Shown here one piece after another: positions 3,188 to 14,437 of a stretch of 64,000 nt of DNA. Within the stretch, counting starts at the first letter, position 1. Every line of letters begins with the position of its first letter. The notes under the pieces were generated by a model. The model had not been told where the DNA came from and made no database searches. It was given only the letters and a program-made list of their open reading frames with translations. Position numbers and translations under genes: made by a program. Where the stretch lies: contig CAZXMM010000001.1 in NCBI GenBank assembly GCA_964641255.1, forward strand, positions 537,984 to 601,983, read 5' to 3'. The DNA is from an uncultured Gammaproteobacteria bacterium. GTDB taxonomy: Bacteria > Patescibacteriota > Microgenomatia > JAMCZE01.

Positions 3188-4373
3188 GGCCCACTTACCC
3201 CTTATGAAAATTATCATCGGCTTACTGCTATTGCTATTTTCCTTGGGCCAACTAGGACGGCTGAATATTTTTGGTTCGGAGTTAGTTATTCACCTCAATG
3301 ATGTGGCCGTTGGTTTATTTGTGCTTGGCACATTCATTTGGAAGCGGGCGACCCTAATTTCTGTGGTAAAGAGGGACCCCCTGTCACTTCCACTCGTCCT
3401 ATGGATTGGAGCAATGAGTTTATCACTTATTATCAACAGTATGCGCCTTTCCCTCTCTGAGCTCGTGATTTCGTCACTGTACGCCGTGCGCTTTGTTGCC
3501 TATACTGGAGTTTACTTTGCTGTTAAGCTGACACTGACTAAAGACATTGAATCCTTCTGGGGCAAAGGGCTAGTCTTAGCTACCGTAGCAGTAGCGGGAG
3601 TAGGAGTTTTGCAATACGTCTTTATTCCCGACGTCTCCTTTCTGCAAGCCACTTCCTGGGACGATCACTACTACCGGCTAATTTCTACATTTTTTGACCC
3701 CGGCTTTACCGGAGCAATCTTGGCTCTGGGGTTATTGGTGGCCTTTTTAGGCCGAAAACACAAATCCGACTGGGGAGTAATTACTCTTATCTATCTTGCC
3801 CTGGCGCTGACCTATTCTCGGGCCTCGTTTCTTCTCTACATGGCCGGATTTACGATCATTGCGCTTTGGCAGCGGTCGACAAAGCTTTTTATTGGAGCGG
3901 CTCTGCTTCTTGTGATCACCATTGCTCTGCTGCCTAATAATATACAAAGCGAGGGGACGCAACTTAACCGCGAAAATAGTGTGTGGTCAAGAATTAATAA
4001 TTGGCAGCAAAGCATTACTATATGGACCAAGGCCCCTCTCTTTGGTCACGGGTTTAATACCTACCGATATGTACAAAGGGATCTTGGGTACCTTAGGCCC
4101 GAGCTCATTAATGAAAGTCACGCAGCAGCGGGGGCTGACTCCTCCCTACTATTAGTATTAGCAACTACGGGAGCCGTCGGGTTAGGCGCCTACCTTTATT
4201 TGCTTTTTACAATGGCCAGACTGGGAAGATATAACAGTCTTTTTTTAGCGAGCTTTGCTGGGGTAGTGGTGCACAGTTTTTTTAATAATACACTTTTCTA
4301 TGCGTGGATTATGGAGTGGCTATGGATACTGTTGGCTCTCGTCCCACTTAGAGAACCAAAAAAAGTCTCTTAA
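3162..4373 (+). CDS. O-antigen ligase (Wzy_C) family membrane protein
   Basis: Polytopic membrane protein with the YSRASFLLYMAGF motif typical of the O-antigen ligase / Wzy_C domain. Confidence 0.65.
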   Translation: MSTKLKPTKAHLPLMKIIIGLLLLLFSLGQLGRLNIFGSELVIHLNDVAVGLFVLGTFIWKRATLISVVKRDPLSLPLVLWIGAMSLSLIINSMRLSLSELVISSLYAVRFVAYTGVYFAVKLTLTKDIESFWGKGLVLATVAVAGVGVLQYVFIPDVSFLQATSWDDHYYRLISTFFDPGFTGAILALGLLVAFLGRKHKSDWGVITLIYLALALTYSRASFLLYMAGFTIIALWQRSTKLFIGAALLLVITIALLPNNIQSEGTQLNRENSVWSRINNWQQSITIWTKAPLFGHGFNTYRYVQRDLGYLRPELINESHAAAGADSSLLLVLATTGAVGLGAYLYLLFTMARLGRYNSLFLASFAGVVVHSFFNNTLFYAWIMEWLWILLALVPLREPKKVS

Positions 4374-5101
4374 GGTTCGTATTTTATCGTCACTTCTTTT
4401 ACTGTTTCATTTCCTGCTTCATCCCGAGCCGTGATTTTAATTTTGTTCTCGCCATTATTCATCTGGAAAATATAATTGAAGTTTCCCGTTCCTGAAACGA
4501 TTGCCAAGTGTTCATTAACAATCACGGTGTTATCTGGATCGGTGCTGCCACTAATTTGTAGTGGGTTTTCCCTCACTGTATCTCCCTCTTTGGGGTTAGT
4601 AAGATCAAGCTTGGGAGCTCCGGTTAGGAGTCTGACAGAGTAATTGTCTGAGGCTGGACTTTTGCCACCACTTTTGCTGATGGCTACCGCTGAAAAGGTA
4701 TTGGTATTTTTTTCTAAATCCACTATCATCTCAAATTTCCCCATTTCGTCAGTTGTGGCGGTGCCAAGTAGGCGGTCGTTCTGATATATTTCTACTTCGG
4801 TCTCACTGTCTGAACGACCGGAGAGAGTAATACTTGCTGACTTAGTAGCCGAGAAGTTTTCAATAAATTGTGGTTGACTGGGAATAATCATGGTGGTGTC
4901 CTCAGCCCTGCTTGCCCCACCGTGCCTTACCCCACTGATCAGCCCAGTAAGACCAAAGACCGCCTGGGTGCCGAAGGTAACGAGCAGCAGGATGGTAACA
5001 ATAGAGCCCGCCAATAGTAGGTAAGTATTGCGTTTGGCTTTTTGTGCCTGGCGACTGCGTAAACGGGAGCCGTAATTCTTTTCCACACCCAATATTAGCA
5101 T
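4370..5101 (-). CDS. Membrane-anchored hypothetical protein with a beta-rich (Ig-like) ectodomain
   Basis: Basic N-terminus followed by one TM helix (LLLAGSIVTILLLVTFG), then a Thr/Ser-rich beta-strand-like sequence. No catalytic motif found. Confidence 0.35.
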   Translation of the reverse strand: MLILGVEKNYGSRLRSRQAQKAKRNTYLLLAGSIVTILLLVTFGTQAVFGLTGLISGVRHGGASRAEDTTMIIPSQPQFIENFSATKSASITLSGRSDSETEVEIYQNDRLLGTATTDEMGKFEMIVDLEKNTNTFSAVAISKSGGKSPASDNYSVRLLTGAPKLDLTNPKEGDTVRENPLQISGSTDPDNTVIVNEHLAIVSGTGNFNYIFQMNNGENKIKITARDEAGNETVKEVTIKYEP

Positions 5102-5136: not shown

Positions 5137-5208
5137 GCCGAAGTGGCTCAGTGGTAGAGCAGCTCTTTCGTAAAGAGCGGGTCGAGAGTTCGATTCTCTC
5201 CTTCGGCT
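5137..5208 (+). tRNA. tRNA-Thr (anticodon CGT)
   Basis: Manual cloverleaf: acceptor GCCGAAG/CTTCGGC, D arm GCTC-AGTGGTA-GAGC, anticodon arm GCTCT-TTCGTAA-AGAGC, T arm GAGAG-TTCGATT-CTCTC. CCA is not encoded. Confidence 0.8.
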
Positions 5209-5224
5209 CAAGGAGTTAATAGTA

Positions 5225-11239: not shown

Positions 11240-11944
11240 GTGTCCAAAAAACTGCCCAAGAAAAAAGGCAATTGGCATAAAGCCGTAACTATCGGCGCTT
11301 CTGTTCTCGTTGCCTCCGGGGCTTTATGGTTTTTGACCACCGCCAGCGGCAGCAAAATTCCCGTCCCGTCTTATCAAGCCATGCGTGTCGTTGACGGCGA
11401 CACTTTTGAGACCAACGAACGGCAGCTGATCCGCCTTTCGGGAGTTGACGTCCCAGAACTCAAAAACTGTGGCGGCCCAGAAGCCAAAAAAGCTCTGGAA
11501 AAACTCATTTCGGGTAAAAATCTTTACGTCAAAGTGATCTATCGGGACGGCTCCAATCGTCTTATTAGTCATGTTTACAACGATCAAGGTTTTGTTAGTG
11601 CCCAAATGGCTAGACTTGGTAATGCTTACTATCTCGGCAGTGGAGCCAGCGATTCCACTCTTACGGCTGCTTCAGACTATGCCAGAGAGCACAAGCTTGG
11701 CATTTTCAGTTCAAAATGCACTCAAGTTACAAACACTAAACAGCCAGATTGTGTCATCAAAGCCAACAATCGGGACTATTCAAAACCAGGCGCTCCAAAA
11801 CTTTATCATTTCCCAGGTTGCGGCCAGTACGACCACACGCAAGTGGAACTCTATAAAGGTGATCAGTGGTTCTGTACCGAAAGCCAAGCACAAAAAGCTG
11901 GTTATTCCAAAGGTTCAGATTGCTTTGCCAAAAAATGGAGATGA
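11240..11944 (+). CDS. Membrane-anchored thermonuclease (SNase-like) with a Cys-containing C-terminal extension
   Basis: N-terminal TM, then VVDGDTFETNERQLIRLSGVDVPE (the classic staphylococcal nuclease motif). The C-terminal 80 aa contain 6 Cys. Confidence 0.7.
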   Translation: MSKKLPKKKGNWHKAVTIGASVLVASGALWFLTTASGSKIPVPSYQAMRVVDGDTFETNERQLIRLSGVDVPELKNCGGPEAKKALEKLISGKNLYVKVIYRDGSNRLISHVYNDQGFVSAQMARLGNAYYLGSGASDSTLTAASDYAREHKLGIFSSKCTQVTNTKQPDCVIKANNRDYSKPGAPKLYHFPGCGQYDHTQVELYKGDQWFCTESQAQKAGYSKGSDCFAKKWR

Positions 11945-12285
11945 GGTAAAAAAGAGGGGGAGTGTATTTGGCTATTACATCAGATCCTTAATCTCTTGGT
12001 TACTTTTTAGAACTTGATCTATATATGGAACTGGGTACCGTAATTGGCTCGAATCTATGTGTCCGCCGTAGCCTTGGCGTAGGTGGATTTAGCCAGGACG
12101 AGTATATCAAAAAATATCTGCTCGATCCTCATATTCCACTTATCACTGTTGTTAAAATTAGTCTTCGCTATTACATACAGCCCAACCTCAATTGATTTTA
12201 CAACTTAATGTCTTTAAAGACTATCATGAGAAGATTAATCCATTTCTATTTTTAGAAGTGTTTGGGAAACAACGCAAAGATCGAC

Positions 12286-12963
12286 TTACCTCACCTCTTT
12301 AAGTAAAGTTTGCAACATCCATTCCAAAAGAGTAATTCTATCGTCATACCCCTTTTTATCACCCTTTTCTAAGTCACAGCCTAATAAGTCAGCATGCATT
12401 AAAAGAGTTAACTCAATAGCAACATCGTCAACCGTCTCATTAAATATTCGAAAGTATTTTTCTTTGCCTTGATTAGCAATCATTAAATTAAGGATTTCTG
12501 AGATAAAGCCATGATATCTAACTACTCGCTCTACATATGATTCTGCTTTACTATCTAAATCAAATCTTTCTGCAAAATTCTTTACTCTTCCAGCTGCAAT
12601 TAAATCATGACCTGGACACCCGGCTGTCCCATCTGGTTTTTTAACGAGTACATCAGTTTTAGCAATGTCATGAAGTAAAGCGGCGACTTTAAGAGTATTT
12701 TGTCTCGTTTGATTACCAATGACCTCTGATAGATACTTTTTTAATGCATCTTTTTGGTTAAGTTCCAAATTATTAAACTCCAATACCGTTTCAAGACCAG
12801 CATAAACAGCGATGACGTGATCTAGAACATTTTGATTGTTATGCCATAAGCTATTTTCAGTTACTAAGGCTAATTCGTAGTACTCAGGGAATGAAGACAA
12901 ATATGCTTTATCTCTAAGTGATTTTGATGTTACTTGTGATATGTCTATAAAAATTGGTGGCAT
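12286..12963 (-). CDS. HD-domain phosphohydrolase
   Basis: H...LLHDIAK...GHD...YHG...HAD are HD-superfamily metal-binding motifs. The gene lies in an AT-rich segment. Confidence 0.6.
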   Translation of the reverse strand: MPPIFIDISQVTSKSLRDKAYLSSFPEYYELALVTENSLWHNNQNVLDHVIAVYAGLETVLEFNNLELNQKDALKKYLSEVIGNQTRQNTLKVAALLHDIAKTDVLVKKPDGTAGCPGHDLIAAGRVKNFAERFDLDSKAESYVERVVRYHGFISEILNLMIANQGKEKYFRIFNETVDDVAIELTLLMHADLLGCDLEKGDKKGYDDRITLLEWMLQTLLKEVR

Positions 12964-13013
12964 AATTGTCAGTTCCTAGTAACTTTGTGTACATTTCTGT
13001 ACGTAATTGTCAT

Positions 13014-13052
13014 ATGGAGCGGGAGACGCGAATTATTTTGAACTCCTGCTCG
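13014..13052 (-). repeat. Degenerate copy of the 3' end of tRNA-Gly (T-arm plus acceptor 3' strand). Candidate att-site remnant.
   Basis: tggagcgggagacgcgaattattttgaactcctgctcg aligns with 13743-13775, tggagcggggtacgagaattgaactcgcttctc. The match is 9/9, then 8/11, then a 5-nt insertion, then 6/6. Confidence 0.4.
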
Positions 13053-13150
13053 ATTAAATTCTAATTCATTTTAACAAGTTGATGGAGGCTATACTTGTGA
13101 ATAGCCAAAAAAAGTCATGGTTCAAACAATGGTTAGTTTTGTAATACTTC

Positions 13151-13585
13151 TTATCCACATTTCTCACTTGTCCAAGGTGTGACAAAAAGAGCAAAAAACC
13201 CATTTAGTACATTTGAATACCTCCTACAGGTATGACGCGTTTGAAATTTAATTAACTTCCATCCTTTGTTCTGTTTTTCTACAATATATTTATTTTCGGT
13301 AGGGCCAACTGAGTCATCCCCTACGTATTGTTCTTTAACATAAATTTCTAGTCTTTTATTAAAAAGGTTAGTAACAACTCTAATAAGGCCTTTGTTACCT
13401 TTTTCATCCATATGTTTTATGCTCAACCGGTTGGCTAGATCGTCTTGGGAAAGAACATTAAAATCCTTTAAATCTACGTAATGTTGATAGATCCAGTCGG
13501 ATTTAAGCGGAGTCATGAAGCCATAATCAGAAAAGAAAAATCCTATTAATGTCCTAATAAAAATAATTAAATAAATGAATTGCAT
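13151..13585 (-). CDS. Hypothetical small exported protein in the AT-rich islet
   Basis: The ORF is listed as 13151..13609. The likely start is the ATG at 13585, MQFIYLIIFIRTLIGFFF, which is signal-peptide-like. GC is about 33%. No recognisable domain. Confidence 0.35.
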   Translation of the reverse strand: MQFIYLIIFIRTLIGFFFSDYGFMTPLKSDWIYQHYVDLKDFNVLSQDDLANRLSIKHMDEKGNKGLIRVVTNLFNKRLEIYVKEQYVGDDSVGPTENKYIVEKQNKGWKLIKFQTRHTCRRYSNVLNGFFALFVTPWTSEKCG

Positions 13586-13742
13586 ACGAATTTTAAACAC
13601 CAATAGCACTTACTAGTGCAAAACACGCGATAATTTATATTGTTATTTTAACATGAGAATGATGAAATAAATTATTGAATTAAAATAATAATATTAGCGT
13701 TGTATCGGTACATGCGCACATTTGAGGGGACTACTGCCCGTC

Positions 13743-13816
13743 TGGAGCGGGGTACGAGAATTGAACTCGCTTCTCATCCTTGGGAAGGATGCATACTACC
13801 GGTGTACTAACCCCGC
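13743..13816 (-). tRNA. tRNA-Gly (anticodon CCC), CCA encoded
   Basis: Manual fold on the minus strand: GCGGGGT-TA-GTAC-ACCGGTA-GTAT-G-CATCC-TTCCCAA-GGATG-AGAA-GCGAG-TTCAATT-CTCGT-ACCCCGC-T-CCA. The discriminator is U, as expected for Gly. Confidence 0.85.
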
Positions 13817-13891
13817 ACTATTTTTTTAAATTCCTTTCCTTTCGTGTAGGAAATTCTCCTTGTTGCACTAATTACAATTGTTTTTATATAT

Positions 13892-13943
13892 ACTCGCTTC
13901 TCCCCGCCTTTGGCGGGGCATACTACCGGTGTACTAACCCCGC
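13892..13943 (-). repeat. tRNA-Gly-derived pseudo-tRNA fragment: 5' two-thirds, with the anticodon arm replaced by a 7-bp/3-nt hairpin
   Basis: There is an exact 26-nt match to tRNA positions 1-26 (gcatactaccggtgtactaaccccgc) and an 11-nt match to the variable loop plus 5' T-stem (actcgcttctc). Between them, CCCCGCC-TTT-GGCGGGG replaces the 17-nt anticodon arm at the same length. The T-loop and 3' acceptor strand are absent. Confidence 0.55.
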
Positions 13944-13999
13944 GACTGCAAAATATTATATGCCTAATTGAGTTTTTGTGAAACCAAAAGAGCCCCTAG

Positions 14000-14437
14000 T
14001 TAAGGATTGGTTGGTCTGATAGGAACTTTCGGGATAAGAAGTGTTTGGCCAACAGCGATTTGGTCAGGACTATACAGTTTATTGGCTTCCATAATATCAA
14101 TTGAGTTGTTGCCACTGGTGTAATAGTATTCGGCGATACTCCAGAGGTTCTCTCCTTCTTGGACAACATGACTCGTGGGGAGGGCCACGGTACTACTAGC
14201 ACTGGCTAAGCGGTCTTGTTCTAGGACGGGTACCACCGCTTGAATCGGAACAGAGGGGGTACTCCTTTTACCACTCTCGTGCCAATACCTTATTTTGCCA
14301 AGGAGAAAGCCACTAAGGACCAGCACGGTGACTATACCCAGTAGCAGCGCCACTGTTCTTTGGGGGCCGGCATCTGGCACCTTGGCCACAGGAAAGGGCA
14401 TCTCCTGCTCCACACTAAGTACCTGTTTAAGGATCAT
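14000..14437 (-). CDS. LysM domain membrane-anchored protein
   Basis: C-terminal GENLWSIAEYYY...DQIAVGQTLLIP is a LysM domain. The ORF track extends to 14557, but that overlaps the upstream gene. An internal ATG at 14437 (MILKQV) followed by the TM helix TVALLLGIVTVLVLSGF is the more likely start. Confidence 0.6.
   Translation of the reverse strand: MILKQVLSVEQEMPFPVAKVPDAGPQRTVALLLGIVTVLVLSGFLLGKIRYWHESGKRSTPSVPIQAVVPVLEQDRLASASSTVALPTSHVVQEGENLWSIAEYYYTSGNNSIDIMEANKLYSPDQIAVGQTLLIPKVPIRPTNP

Follow-up and report, generated by a model that had tools for sequence, protein, structure and literature searches.

The locus described here surrounds a tRNA-Gly(CCC) gene in a 64,000-nt stretch of DNA (the window) from an uncultured bacterium of the Microgenomatia (Patescibacteriota), located on contig CAZXMM010000001.1 of GenBank assembly GCA_964641255.1 (positions 537,984 to 601,983). 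The gene is one of five tRNA genes called in the window by ARAGORN, and Rfam (58 bits) agrees that an intact tRNA-Gly(CCC) is present on the minus strand at 13743-13816, as the original prediction had stated. Upstream of it lie a promoter-like sequence, a partial copy of the tRNA gene carrying a GC-rich hairpin, and a short spacer; downstream of it an AT-rich islet holds two small genes and two sequences resembling tRNA 3' ends. The reading that we favour, with a probability of roughly 0.7, is that relics of two kinds flank this single tRNA-Gly(CCC) gene, namely a decayed nuclease cassette on its upstream side and tandem insertions on its downstream side. The related loci and contigs that were compared with the window are labelled L001 to L137; a metagenome scan with a relaxed tRNA 5' pattern yielded 117 loci, mostly on groundwater and aquifer contigs. 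Near-identical DNA was found in two independent assemblies from two sequencing runs (L001 and L002), and an assembly artefact is excluded for the arrangement because both agree in their encoded proteins and in the order of these, the peptide of the spacer included. Contig L090 of a public metagenome, at whose end an Illumina adapter is joined to the interior of a tRNA-Gly gene, is such an artefact.

The tRNA gene and the features on its upstream side are, in the direction of transcription:

13955..13982, minus strand: sigma-70-like promoter, TTCACA-16-TATAAT, 11/12 match, the top promoter in 11900-14100
13892..13943, minus strand: pseudo-tRNA-Gly leader, consisting of tRNA positions 1-26, the hairpin, and 11 nt of variable region and T-stem 5' strand
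13902..13918, minus strand: GC hairpin C-CCCGCC-AAA-GGCGGG-G at the position of the anticodon arm, occurring once in the window
13807..13893, minus strand: probable 28-codon in-frame stump of a GIY-YIG gene (VYIKTIVISATRRISYTKGKEFKKIVRG*), its stop codon TAG formed by tRNA positions 8-10 and its start codon missing
13743..13816, minus strand: functional tRNA-Gly(CCC) with encoded CCA

The 52-nt copy of the 5' part of the tRNA at 13892-13943, which had been pointed out earlier, is real: its flanks are identical to the tRNA at 26/26 and 11/11 bases, and the 26-mer gave no chance matches in 100 shuffles. The anticodon arm is indeed replaced by a GC hairpin, albeit over its inner 15 nt only (CCCGCC-AAA-GGCGGG on the tRNA strand) and not over all 17, and the copy lies 75 nt from the tRNA rather than 76 nt. 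That the replacement has the same length as the original holds for the window copy and not in general, as most hairpins of the related cassettes described below have a 2-nt loop and are one base shorter. The T-arm 3' half and the acceptor 3' strand are missing, so that the copy does not make up a cloverleaf; neither this pseudo-copy nor the 3' fragments in the islet were recognised as tRNA (ARAGORN on the pseudo-copy; Rfam at E ≤ 5). The promoter ends 11 nt upstream of the 5' end of the pseudo-tRNA and, judging from its position, would drive pseudo-tRNA, spacer, and tRNA in one transcript. This 201-nt transcript folds better than 200/200 shuffles (z -4.0), with the hairpin present in the predicted fold. 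Three other identities of the hairpin were rejected. A T-run, as in an intrinsic terminator, was found on neither strand and a terminator scan was silent there; a repeated REP-like element does not agree with its single occurrence in the window; and for a group I intron in the anticodon loop the replacement is just 15 nt, with no Rfam intron match in 11900-14100 at E ≤ 5.

The same structure was found at other tRNA-Gly genes. Ten cassettes were read at the DNA level (the window, L012, L064, L122, L123, L124, L125, L130, L132, and L133), and these are the ones covered by the alignment of ten leaders (A4). In the scan set, L064 and L012 contain a hairpin-bearing tRNA-Gly 5' part, followed directly by a small open reading frame (ORF) and then by tRNA-Gly, and the same design was present in every context fetched with DNA (L122, L123, L124, L125-129, L130/131, L132, and L133). 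A cassette consists of a -10-like box (12-19 nt upstream of the pseudo-tRNA in the other cassettes), tRNA-Gly positions 1-27, a hairpin of the form (C/T)CCCGCC-N2-3-GGCGGG(G/A), 10-16 nt of variable region and T-stem (25 nt in L125), an ATG with an ORF of 81-85 aa, and a complete tRNA-Gly with anticodon CCC or GCC, of which the first 10-22 nt encode the last residues and the stop codon of the ORF. The 5' arm of the hairpin, CCCGCC, is invariant in 10/10 leaders and the 3' arm, GGCGGG, occurs in every row, whereas the tRNA-derived leader flanks differ widely between cassettes. The ORFs encode GIY-YIG nucleases (Pfam E 2e-14 to 3e-17), for which a protein search returned more than 200 homologues at E ≤ 1e-5. 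Among the 120 homologues listed, identity ranged from 61 to 82 % and length was mostly 80-85 aa; the sources, where named among those listed, were all Patescibacteria (Levy-, Roizman-, and Gottesmanbacteria). The gene calls of 17 homologues were extended upstream, at least 12 of them translating the hairpin (into MPRHGGE or CPAEAGR, for example), as do two or more of the remaining ones when judged by eye. These calls, two of which are loci already counted at the DNA level, imply by their translations about a dozen more cassettes.

L132 is the intact counterpart of the window: it has a full ORF, and its tRNA differs from that of the window at the paired positions 6 and 67 only, leaving aside the 3' terminus, where the ARAGORN call ends. 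The architecture was found at tRNA-Gly(CCC) and at tRNA-Gly(GCC) genes in differing genomic contexts. The leader matches the adjacent tRNA in the window, L122, L132, and L133 and does not match it in L012, L124, L064, L125, and the first leader of L130, a pattern that fits movement between lineages followed by local gene conversion. By comparison with these loci, the upstream side of the window tRNA is a degenerate copy of the recurrent GIY-YIG cassette, an assignment of the leader that is independent of the identity of the spacer. The pseudo-tRNA, earlier taken for a product of remodelling or decay, is instead the conserved leader of this cassette.

The spacer is probably the stump of the nuclease gene. 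Its peptide VYIKTIVISATRRISYTKGKEFKKIVRG* aligns with the C-terminus of the family, EATRRERQIKSYKGGNEFKKLLAG, and the ORF of L064 stops at the same tRNA position and in the same phase as the stump of the window. When about 1.5 million residues of six-frame translation (loci, 1.39 million; window, 0.13 million) were scanned with a loose C-terminal motif, true GIY-YIG ends and this site were the only matches; the test is partly circular, as the motif was written with the window sequence known. The identification carries weight because the predicted place, frame, and end all agree. The ORFs also form a deletion series, from full length in L064 and L132 via 51 codons in L012 (42 N-terminal codons fused to a C-terminal GGNGFKKLLAG) and 28 in the window to 11 in L113, an additional degenerate copy of the cassette that retains GNGLKKLIRRG* only. 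Full ORFs are present in L064, L122-L125, and L130-L133. Intact, truncated, and lost ORFs, as in the degeneration cycle of a homing-type cassette, were thus all encountered across the loci, and the window's own copy is a dead relic.

Several loci contain variations on this theme. In L113 (oriented, -48 to +500), the 11-codon stump and an intact tRNA-Gly(CCC) interrupt the D-loop of a tRNA-like gene that bears a hairpin, with a different GIY-YIG ORF and a 16-nt repeat of the tRNA-like 3' end further on. The anticodon loop of a tRNA-Gly(CCC) in L115 (oriented, tRNA start +35 to +145) is interrupted by about 110 nt that hold a complete second tRNA-Gly(CCC) bracketed by CCCGC...GCGGG, after which the 3' part of the outer tRNA resumes; L067 and L053 have the same 5' junction and lack the outer 3' part. 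Other small GIY-YIG subfamilies or C-terminal stumps adjoin genes for tRNA-Gly, -Asp, -Val/Phe, and -Trp in L063, L015, L022, L052, L081, L103, and L118, where the CCCGCC hairpin is usually missing. From such neighbourhoods, tRNA-adjacent GIY-YIG genes seem to be a broader habit in these genomes. Downstream of the cassette tRNA-Gly in L125-L129 lie genes for a cupin, a protein of the 2',5' RNA ligase/cyclic phosphodiesterase family, and an OLD/AAA_15-type ATPase, which by their annotation are RNA-repair and defence-like cargo beside the tRNA.

A filled and an empty version of one site were found in L064 and L007, of which the left flanks are 85 % and the right flanks 73 % identical (BLAST) and the tRNA-Thr gene and the DNA beyond it nearly identical (alignment, by eye). 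The empty site of L007 reads flank, tRNA-Gly, 4 nt, tRNA-Thr. In the filled site of L064 the flank is followed by the hairpin leader, the GIY-YIG gene, a second tRNA-Gly(CCC), an ORF of roughly 130 aa (glyoxalase/VOC-like by eye only), and tRNA-Thr. The second tRNA-Gly(CCC), which was not called by ARAGORN, differs from the tRNA-Gly of L007; from this comparison, a cassette can therefore arrive with a replacement tRNA and cargo. Presence and absence of the cassette at the same site were also seen in related genomes with the order PolX, tRNA-Asp, LysM gene, tRNA-Gly: L124 carries the cassette, and L016, L027, L056, and others lack it.

Many loci share the window's order PolX, tRNA-Asp, LysM gene, tRNA-Gly(CCC). 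The genes pyrG and rplS are normally located 3' of the tRNA in this group: in the empty sites of relatives, pyrG begins 234-357 nt after the tRNA, and relatives carry 0-3 unrelated genes between tRNA-Gly(CCC) and pyrG. The window has no pyrG and its rplS is 15 kb away, and synteny with the relatives therefore ends exactly at the tRNA. Taken across the loci compared, these data establish the tRNA-Gly(CCC) site as an insertion hotspot. The original prediction of a tRNA hotspot with decayed insertions is thus upheld by the relics and by the variable and empty sites in relatives, and fails where it made the pseudo-tRNA an accident of decay. Scans of viral contigs with the 5' 26-mer and the 3' 26-mer of the tRNA gave no matches and hence no phage attP candidate; a scan of genome contigs with the AlkZ-like neighbour gene returned two loci only, both nonsyntenic. 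In many relatives, tRNA-Gly(CCC) and then tRNA-Thr(CGT) come after a homologue of a 243-aa gene (4370-5101 of the window, minus strand). Of these two tRNA genes the window has only tRNA-Thr at this place (5137-5209), 35 nt from the 243-aa gene; tRNA-Gly(CCC) thus has two alternative chromosomal homes in the clade. In L014 (oriented, +74 to +251), a 19-nt sequence from the tRNA-Gly 3' end recurs exactly, about 160 nt further downstream than the tRNA; the repeat brackets a GC-rich insert that looks like a miniature insertion flanked by attachment (att) sites.

On the downstream side of the tRNA, the islet is composed of the following features:

13053..13742, minus strand: module 1, the most AT-rich segment (31.7 % GC), with the ORFan p152 at 13151-13609
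13014..13052, minus strand: relic 1, a decayed tRNA-Gly 3' end with a T arm carrying a 5-nt insertion, acceptor strand, and CCA
12273..13026, minus strand: core of module 2, a 51-nt spacer and an HD phosphohydrolase gene (12286-12963), defined by homology to L134
12087..12281, minus strand: tail of module 2, conserved; either non-coding or a small antisense ORF with a frameshift
12026..12057, minus strand: relic 2, a tRNA-3'-end-like repeat that marks the distal edge of the islet at the GC transition (identity 23/31, one gap)

The islet (12026-13742) is a compositional outlier, as had been noticed before: it has 34.2 % GC, the window having a mean of 45.9 % (sd 3.3, measured over 700-nt segments), all 25 of the lowest-GC segments fall within it, and it is the sole part of the window below 37 % GC. 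Where it had been treated as one unit, it resolves into two modules with a second relic at 12026-12057. Nowhere else in the 64 kb does a gapped alignment with the tRNA 3' half score as high as at relic 1 (about 13015-13051), whose score of 17 was reached in 0/1000 shuffles, so the tRNA 3' fragment reported there is above chance. The next independent site is relic 2 (score 12.5), which matches end to end from the CCA, ranks third among the sites of the window, and was equalled in 4/3000 shuffles; its counterpart in L134 (8583-8612) was equalled in 13/2000 shuffles against its own tRNA. Scored against 271 tRNAs, relic 1 reached 17-18 with the 3' halves of A-type tRNA-Gly(CCC/GCC) and 12.5 with UCC genes; its nearest relatives in this set being of the A-type, an origin from a B-type tRNA-Gly end (acceptor strand CTCCCGC) was rejected. 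The similarity favours the earlier view of relic 1 as a displaced 3' end of tRNA-Gly(CCC), the remnant of another tRNA-Gly gene being possible as well.

The core of module 2 is 90.3 % identical to L134 over 754 nt. The homology starts in the last 12 nt of the intact tRNA-Gly(UCC) of L134 and continues through the 51-nt spacer into the HD gene. The tail is 79 % identical at the nucleotide level to L134 8393-8582, an extra 190-aa gene being located in between in L134, of which the islet is AT-rich as well. An antisense frame in the tail is open over 88 codons in the 281 nt translated from L134, although no start codon was recognised; in the window the frame is shifted and 30 nt are inserted in phase, and the antisense ORF of 12087-12281 belongs to no Pfam family. 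In L137, the HD gene is bracketed by a clean 44-nt direct repeat of the tRNA end and spacer (0/2000 shuffles). Both relics of the window are on the tRNA strand and downstream of the tRNA, as direct repeats of a tRNA 3' end are in genomic islands; the islet likewise combines deviant composition with absence from the same site in relatives, the HD module being shared at another tRNA-Gly. The simplest reading of this order is a tandem array of tRNA, p152 module, relic 1, HD module, and relic 2, in which, on present comparisons, the HD module is old and shared with relatives and the p152 module lineage-specific. In a distant relative (L010, 4580-9300), an AT-rich region after tRNA-Gly(CCC) contains an unrelated small ORF, an HD homologue (67 % aa identity), an aldo/keto-reductase-like gene (label by eye), an HExxH-motif protein read as ImmA-like, and another read as an IS1595-type transposase (both by eye). 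A tRNA relic suspected upstream of HD in L010 was discarded, as the match was not significant (1406/2000 shuffles). The gene bordering the islet (11240-11944) encodes a staphylococcal-nuclease domain and a C-terminal "sunset" domain (NCBIfam NF051437, E 5e-9), with a weak PADLOC match to an SNc+LTD candidate defence protein.

The protein p152 belongs to no family in Pfam, PADLOC, NCBIfam, or PHROGs, retrieved only itself among 5.8 billion proteins, and is absent from all related loci compared. The HD protein gave a weak Pfam HD match and, in PADLOC, PHROGs, and NCBIfam, marginal Cas3-HD matches (E about 0.005); the search of both proteins for defence or toxin functions, the line suggested earlier, thus gave no assignment for either. 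HD has 91 homologue clusters of 40-90 % identity, those named all being Patescibacteria, and an identical HD protein is encoded on a 950-kb NCBI contig. In L134/135 (90 % aa identity) and L136/137 (81 %), four contigs that represent two distinct loci (L134 with L135; L136 with L137), the HD gene immediately follows an intact tRNA-Gly(UCC). A gene that is clade-wide, 90 % identical at the nucleotide level in a relative, and found behind tRNA-Gly(UCC) elsewhere is not recent cargo. In every context examined, HD is located downstream of a tRNA-Gly gene. A profile of 20 HD homologues matched residues 250-449 of the A-adding enzyme of Aquifex aeolicus (E 6e-13; structure deposited as "Poly A polymerase", 3wfr and related entries), and HD also gave a weak match to the CCA-transferase model TIGR02692. 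The invariant columns of the alignment include several His and Asp residues, among them the HD pair H98-D99. On the strength of the profile match, HD is related, as a protein in its own right, to the C-terminal region of class II A/CCA-adding enzymes. In E. coli, the HD domain of the CCA-adding enzyme acts as a 2',3'-cyclic phosphodiesterase and as a phosphatase. Because of the CCA-adding relative and the adjacency to tRNA-Gly at every locus examined, HD may act on RNA 3' ends, a prediction by analogy that is a lead rather than a result.

The closest known analogue is SegB of phage T4, a free-standing GIY-YIG homing endonuclease encoded among the tRNA genes of T4; its 27-bp recognition site includes the TpsiC stem-loop motif conserved in tRNA genes, and its homing takes neighbouring tRNA genes along (PMC2330249). 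The cassette is alike in being a GIY-YIG gene lodged at tRNA genes, in a pseudo-tRNA that breaks off in the T stem/loop, and in that the L064 cassette brings its own tRNA-Gly. It differs in that SegB is phage-borne and has a site of 27 bp (PMC2330249), which implies a DNA-binding capacity that a protein of 81-85 aa lacks, whereas the proteins of the Candidate Phyla Radiation (CPR) are chromosomal and consist of the catalytic domain only. The cassette, with its predicted nuclease activity, moreover always has a tRNA-derived leader with a fixed hairpin and an ORF that overlaps the tRNA 5' end. In CPR rRNA genes, non-intron insertions encoding GIY-YIG proteins have been described in 16S/23S as sparse, which is similar with respect to the bacterial group and to the presence of a GIY-YIG ORF in a structural RNA gene without a group I/II intron; tRNA is mentioned 0 times in the text of that preprint (bioRxiv 10.1101/2024.02.27.582315). 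The host tRNA of the cassette, in contrast, is not interrupted but duplicated, with a dead hairpin copy and an intact copy.

Genomic islands targeted to tRNA genes have attL/attR repeats of the tRNA 3' end and occur in tandem arrays; the surveys of K. Williams are reportedly an example of a source on them. The window resembles such islands in its intact tRNA, deviant DNA, partial 3' copy, two modules with two relics, and variable site in relatives. It differs in that it has no integrase, that the modules are tiny (0.7 and 1.0 kb), and that the HD module is clade-conserved rather than sporadic. The restriction endonucleases Eco29kI and Cfr42I are GIY-YIG enzymes acting on the GC-rich palindrome CCGCGG, are larger than the cassette nuclease, and are paired with methyltransferases. 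They provide a lead only: the cassette hairpin is also a GC palindrome, with a 2-3 nt centre, and recognition of its own hairpin by the nuclease is purely hypothetical. A description of the cassette was not found in the literature searched (full text), and the combination of a minimal GIY-YIG ORF, a tRNA-derived hairpin leader, and an overlapping intact tRNA occurs in none of SegB, the rRNA insertions, and the tRNA islands.

To explain both sides of the tRNA we propose, by analogy, that the ORF, transcribed from the tRNA promoter, would encode a free-standing endonuclease of the homing type. This enzyme would cut cassette-free tRNA-Gly genes, as T4 SegB does at the T-arm, and repair would copy in the cassette with a replacement tRNA and sometimes cargo. 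The leader would be the remainder of the disrupted or duplicated target, the intact tRNA would restore function, and the nuclease gene would decay once the cassette is fixed. In the window, the leader and the 28-codon stump would then be left as a 127-nt 5' extension for RNase P to remove. As the ORF overlaps the tRNA 5' end, a cut by RNase P there would take off its stop codon, and expression of the nuclease could stay low. The islet would have arisen by serial site-specific insertion at the tRNA 3' end, the recombinase having since been lost or having been supplied in trans. More tentatively, and at somewhat less than even odds, we suggest that the hairpin leader and minimal GIY-YIG gene constitute an undescribed mobile cassette of CPR tRNA-Gly genes in which the palindrome is a working part, possibly as the nuclease recognition/cleavage site or as an immunity feature of the occupied allele. 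Such a cassette would spread between isoacceptor genes (CCC, GCC) and lineages, bring replacement tRNAs and small cargo genes, and seed rearrangements at tRNA-Gly loci.

A number of observations weigh against the preferred explanation. The stump match is not significant window-wide (tblastn E 0.4), and a family profile run on the six-frame translation of the window gave it E 2.6 and placed it fourth among 2481 peptides, the genuine GIY-YIG domain of UvrC coming immediately before it; for a single peptide predicted beforehand, this rank equals roughly p = 0.001. One filled/empty pair only was found, and it does not fix the ends of the element. L125, L130, and L113 carry, after the functional tRNA, an extra hairpin-containing tRNA 3' piece that simple homing does not predict. 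The functional tRNA of cassette-bearing genomes is not visibly different from tRNAs at empty sites, and homing leaves it unexplained how the intact tRNA escapes self-cutting. A distinctive anticodon stem as the immunity of cassette-bearing tRNAs was rejected, the same stems being present at empty sites. The 81-aa protein has no DNA-binding domain, unlike SegB or I-TevI; SegB is more than twice as long as the cassette protein of 81-85 aa. Homing accounts neither for how an 81-aa domain finds its site nor for the fixed sequence of the hairpin. For the islet, no integrase or recombinase is encoded among the neighbouring genes at about 5.2 to 16.1 kb of the window, in keeping with the original prediction, the islet itself holding p152 and HD only. 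Relic 2 lies inside the conserved antisense frame, so that part of its conservation could be coding, and L010 has HD behind tRNA-Gly(CCC) without a significant relic upstream of it.

For the downstream side, an alternative that we consider rather unlikely, though the strongest of those weighed here, is that relic 1 stems from a separate, since truncated tRNA-Gly gene preceding HD (UCC in relatives), joined to the present locus by rearrangement or gene conversion. Nuclease cuts in both tRNA-Gly loci would perhaps have been the trigger, and the p152 DNA would be filler. This would agree with the intact tRNA-Gly(UCC) directly upstream of HD on the four contigs mentioned above, with the homology to L134 that begins within this tRNA and includes the spacer, and with the end of synteny exactly at tRNA-Gly(CCC) in a window without pyrG. 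Relic 1 has, however, a T-arm closer to A-type tRNA-Gly(CCC/GCC) than to any UCC gene seen, the loss of a sole tRNA-Gly(UCC) should be lethal, and the HD module of L137 is itself bracketed by a tRNA-end repeat, as in an insertion.

With respect to the leader, it is improbable that selection has kept it as a functional RNA or DNA element after loss of the nuclease, be it as a 5' leader controlling processing or expression of tRNA-Gly or as a nuclease recognition/cleavage site. The hairpin stems are unchanged across cassettes in which loop and flanks vary, the hairpin forms in a transcript that outperforms its shuffles, and in the window the flanks have kept 37/37 identity with the tRNA after loss of the ORF; but the same invariance of the stems means that there is no covariation and hence no sign of a selected RNA structure, the hairpin element was never seen without a GIY-YIG ORF or stump, gene conversion from the tRNA, at a distance of 127 nt, accounts for the flank identity just as well, and no Rfam family matches the leader (E ≤ 5). 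An att-type by-product of a classical integrase element, with integrase scars on both sides of the tRNA, is very unlikely: tRNA genes are classic integration sites, the downstream relics are compatible with such scars, and the copy ends in the T-loop, which is generally known as a crossover position of tRNA-targeting integrases, yet integrase att repeats copy the 3' and not the 5' part of a tRNA, decay of an att site is not expected to give a fixed hairpin substitution, the DNA between copy and tRNA is a GIY-YIG ORF in every cassette, and no integrase was found here or in any cassette examined (gene tables). Local tandem duplication of the tRNA with random decay, the hairpin being a coincidence, would account for the complete identity of the flanks with the adjacent tRNA, which a recent duplication would leave; it is effectively refuted by the same hairpin, junction, and neighbouring ORF in about 20 independent cassettes with differing tRNA-Gly backbones.

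For the window itself, the preferred reading of two kinds of relics means a dead cassette relic next to an ordinary, integrase-less pile of small insertions. For annotation in general, hairpin pseudo-tRNA halves should be recognised as such, as they will otherwise be reported as odd tRNA fragments. To our knowledge, no tRNA-gene-targeting GIY-YIG element is known from cellular genomes, and the cassette, if it is an active homing-type element, would be the first. It would then offer a compact model of an 81-aa nuclease, a 50-nt leader, and one tRNA, and would help to explain why tRNA-Gly loci are synteny breakpoints in Microgenomates; short contig breaks at tRNA-Gly loci in CPR metagenome assemblies would have a cause as well. 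Such a model could show how a selfish nuclease inhabits an essential, unmutatable RNA gene by way of duplication and not by way of an intron.

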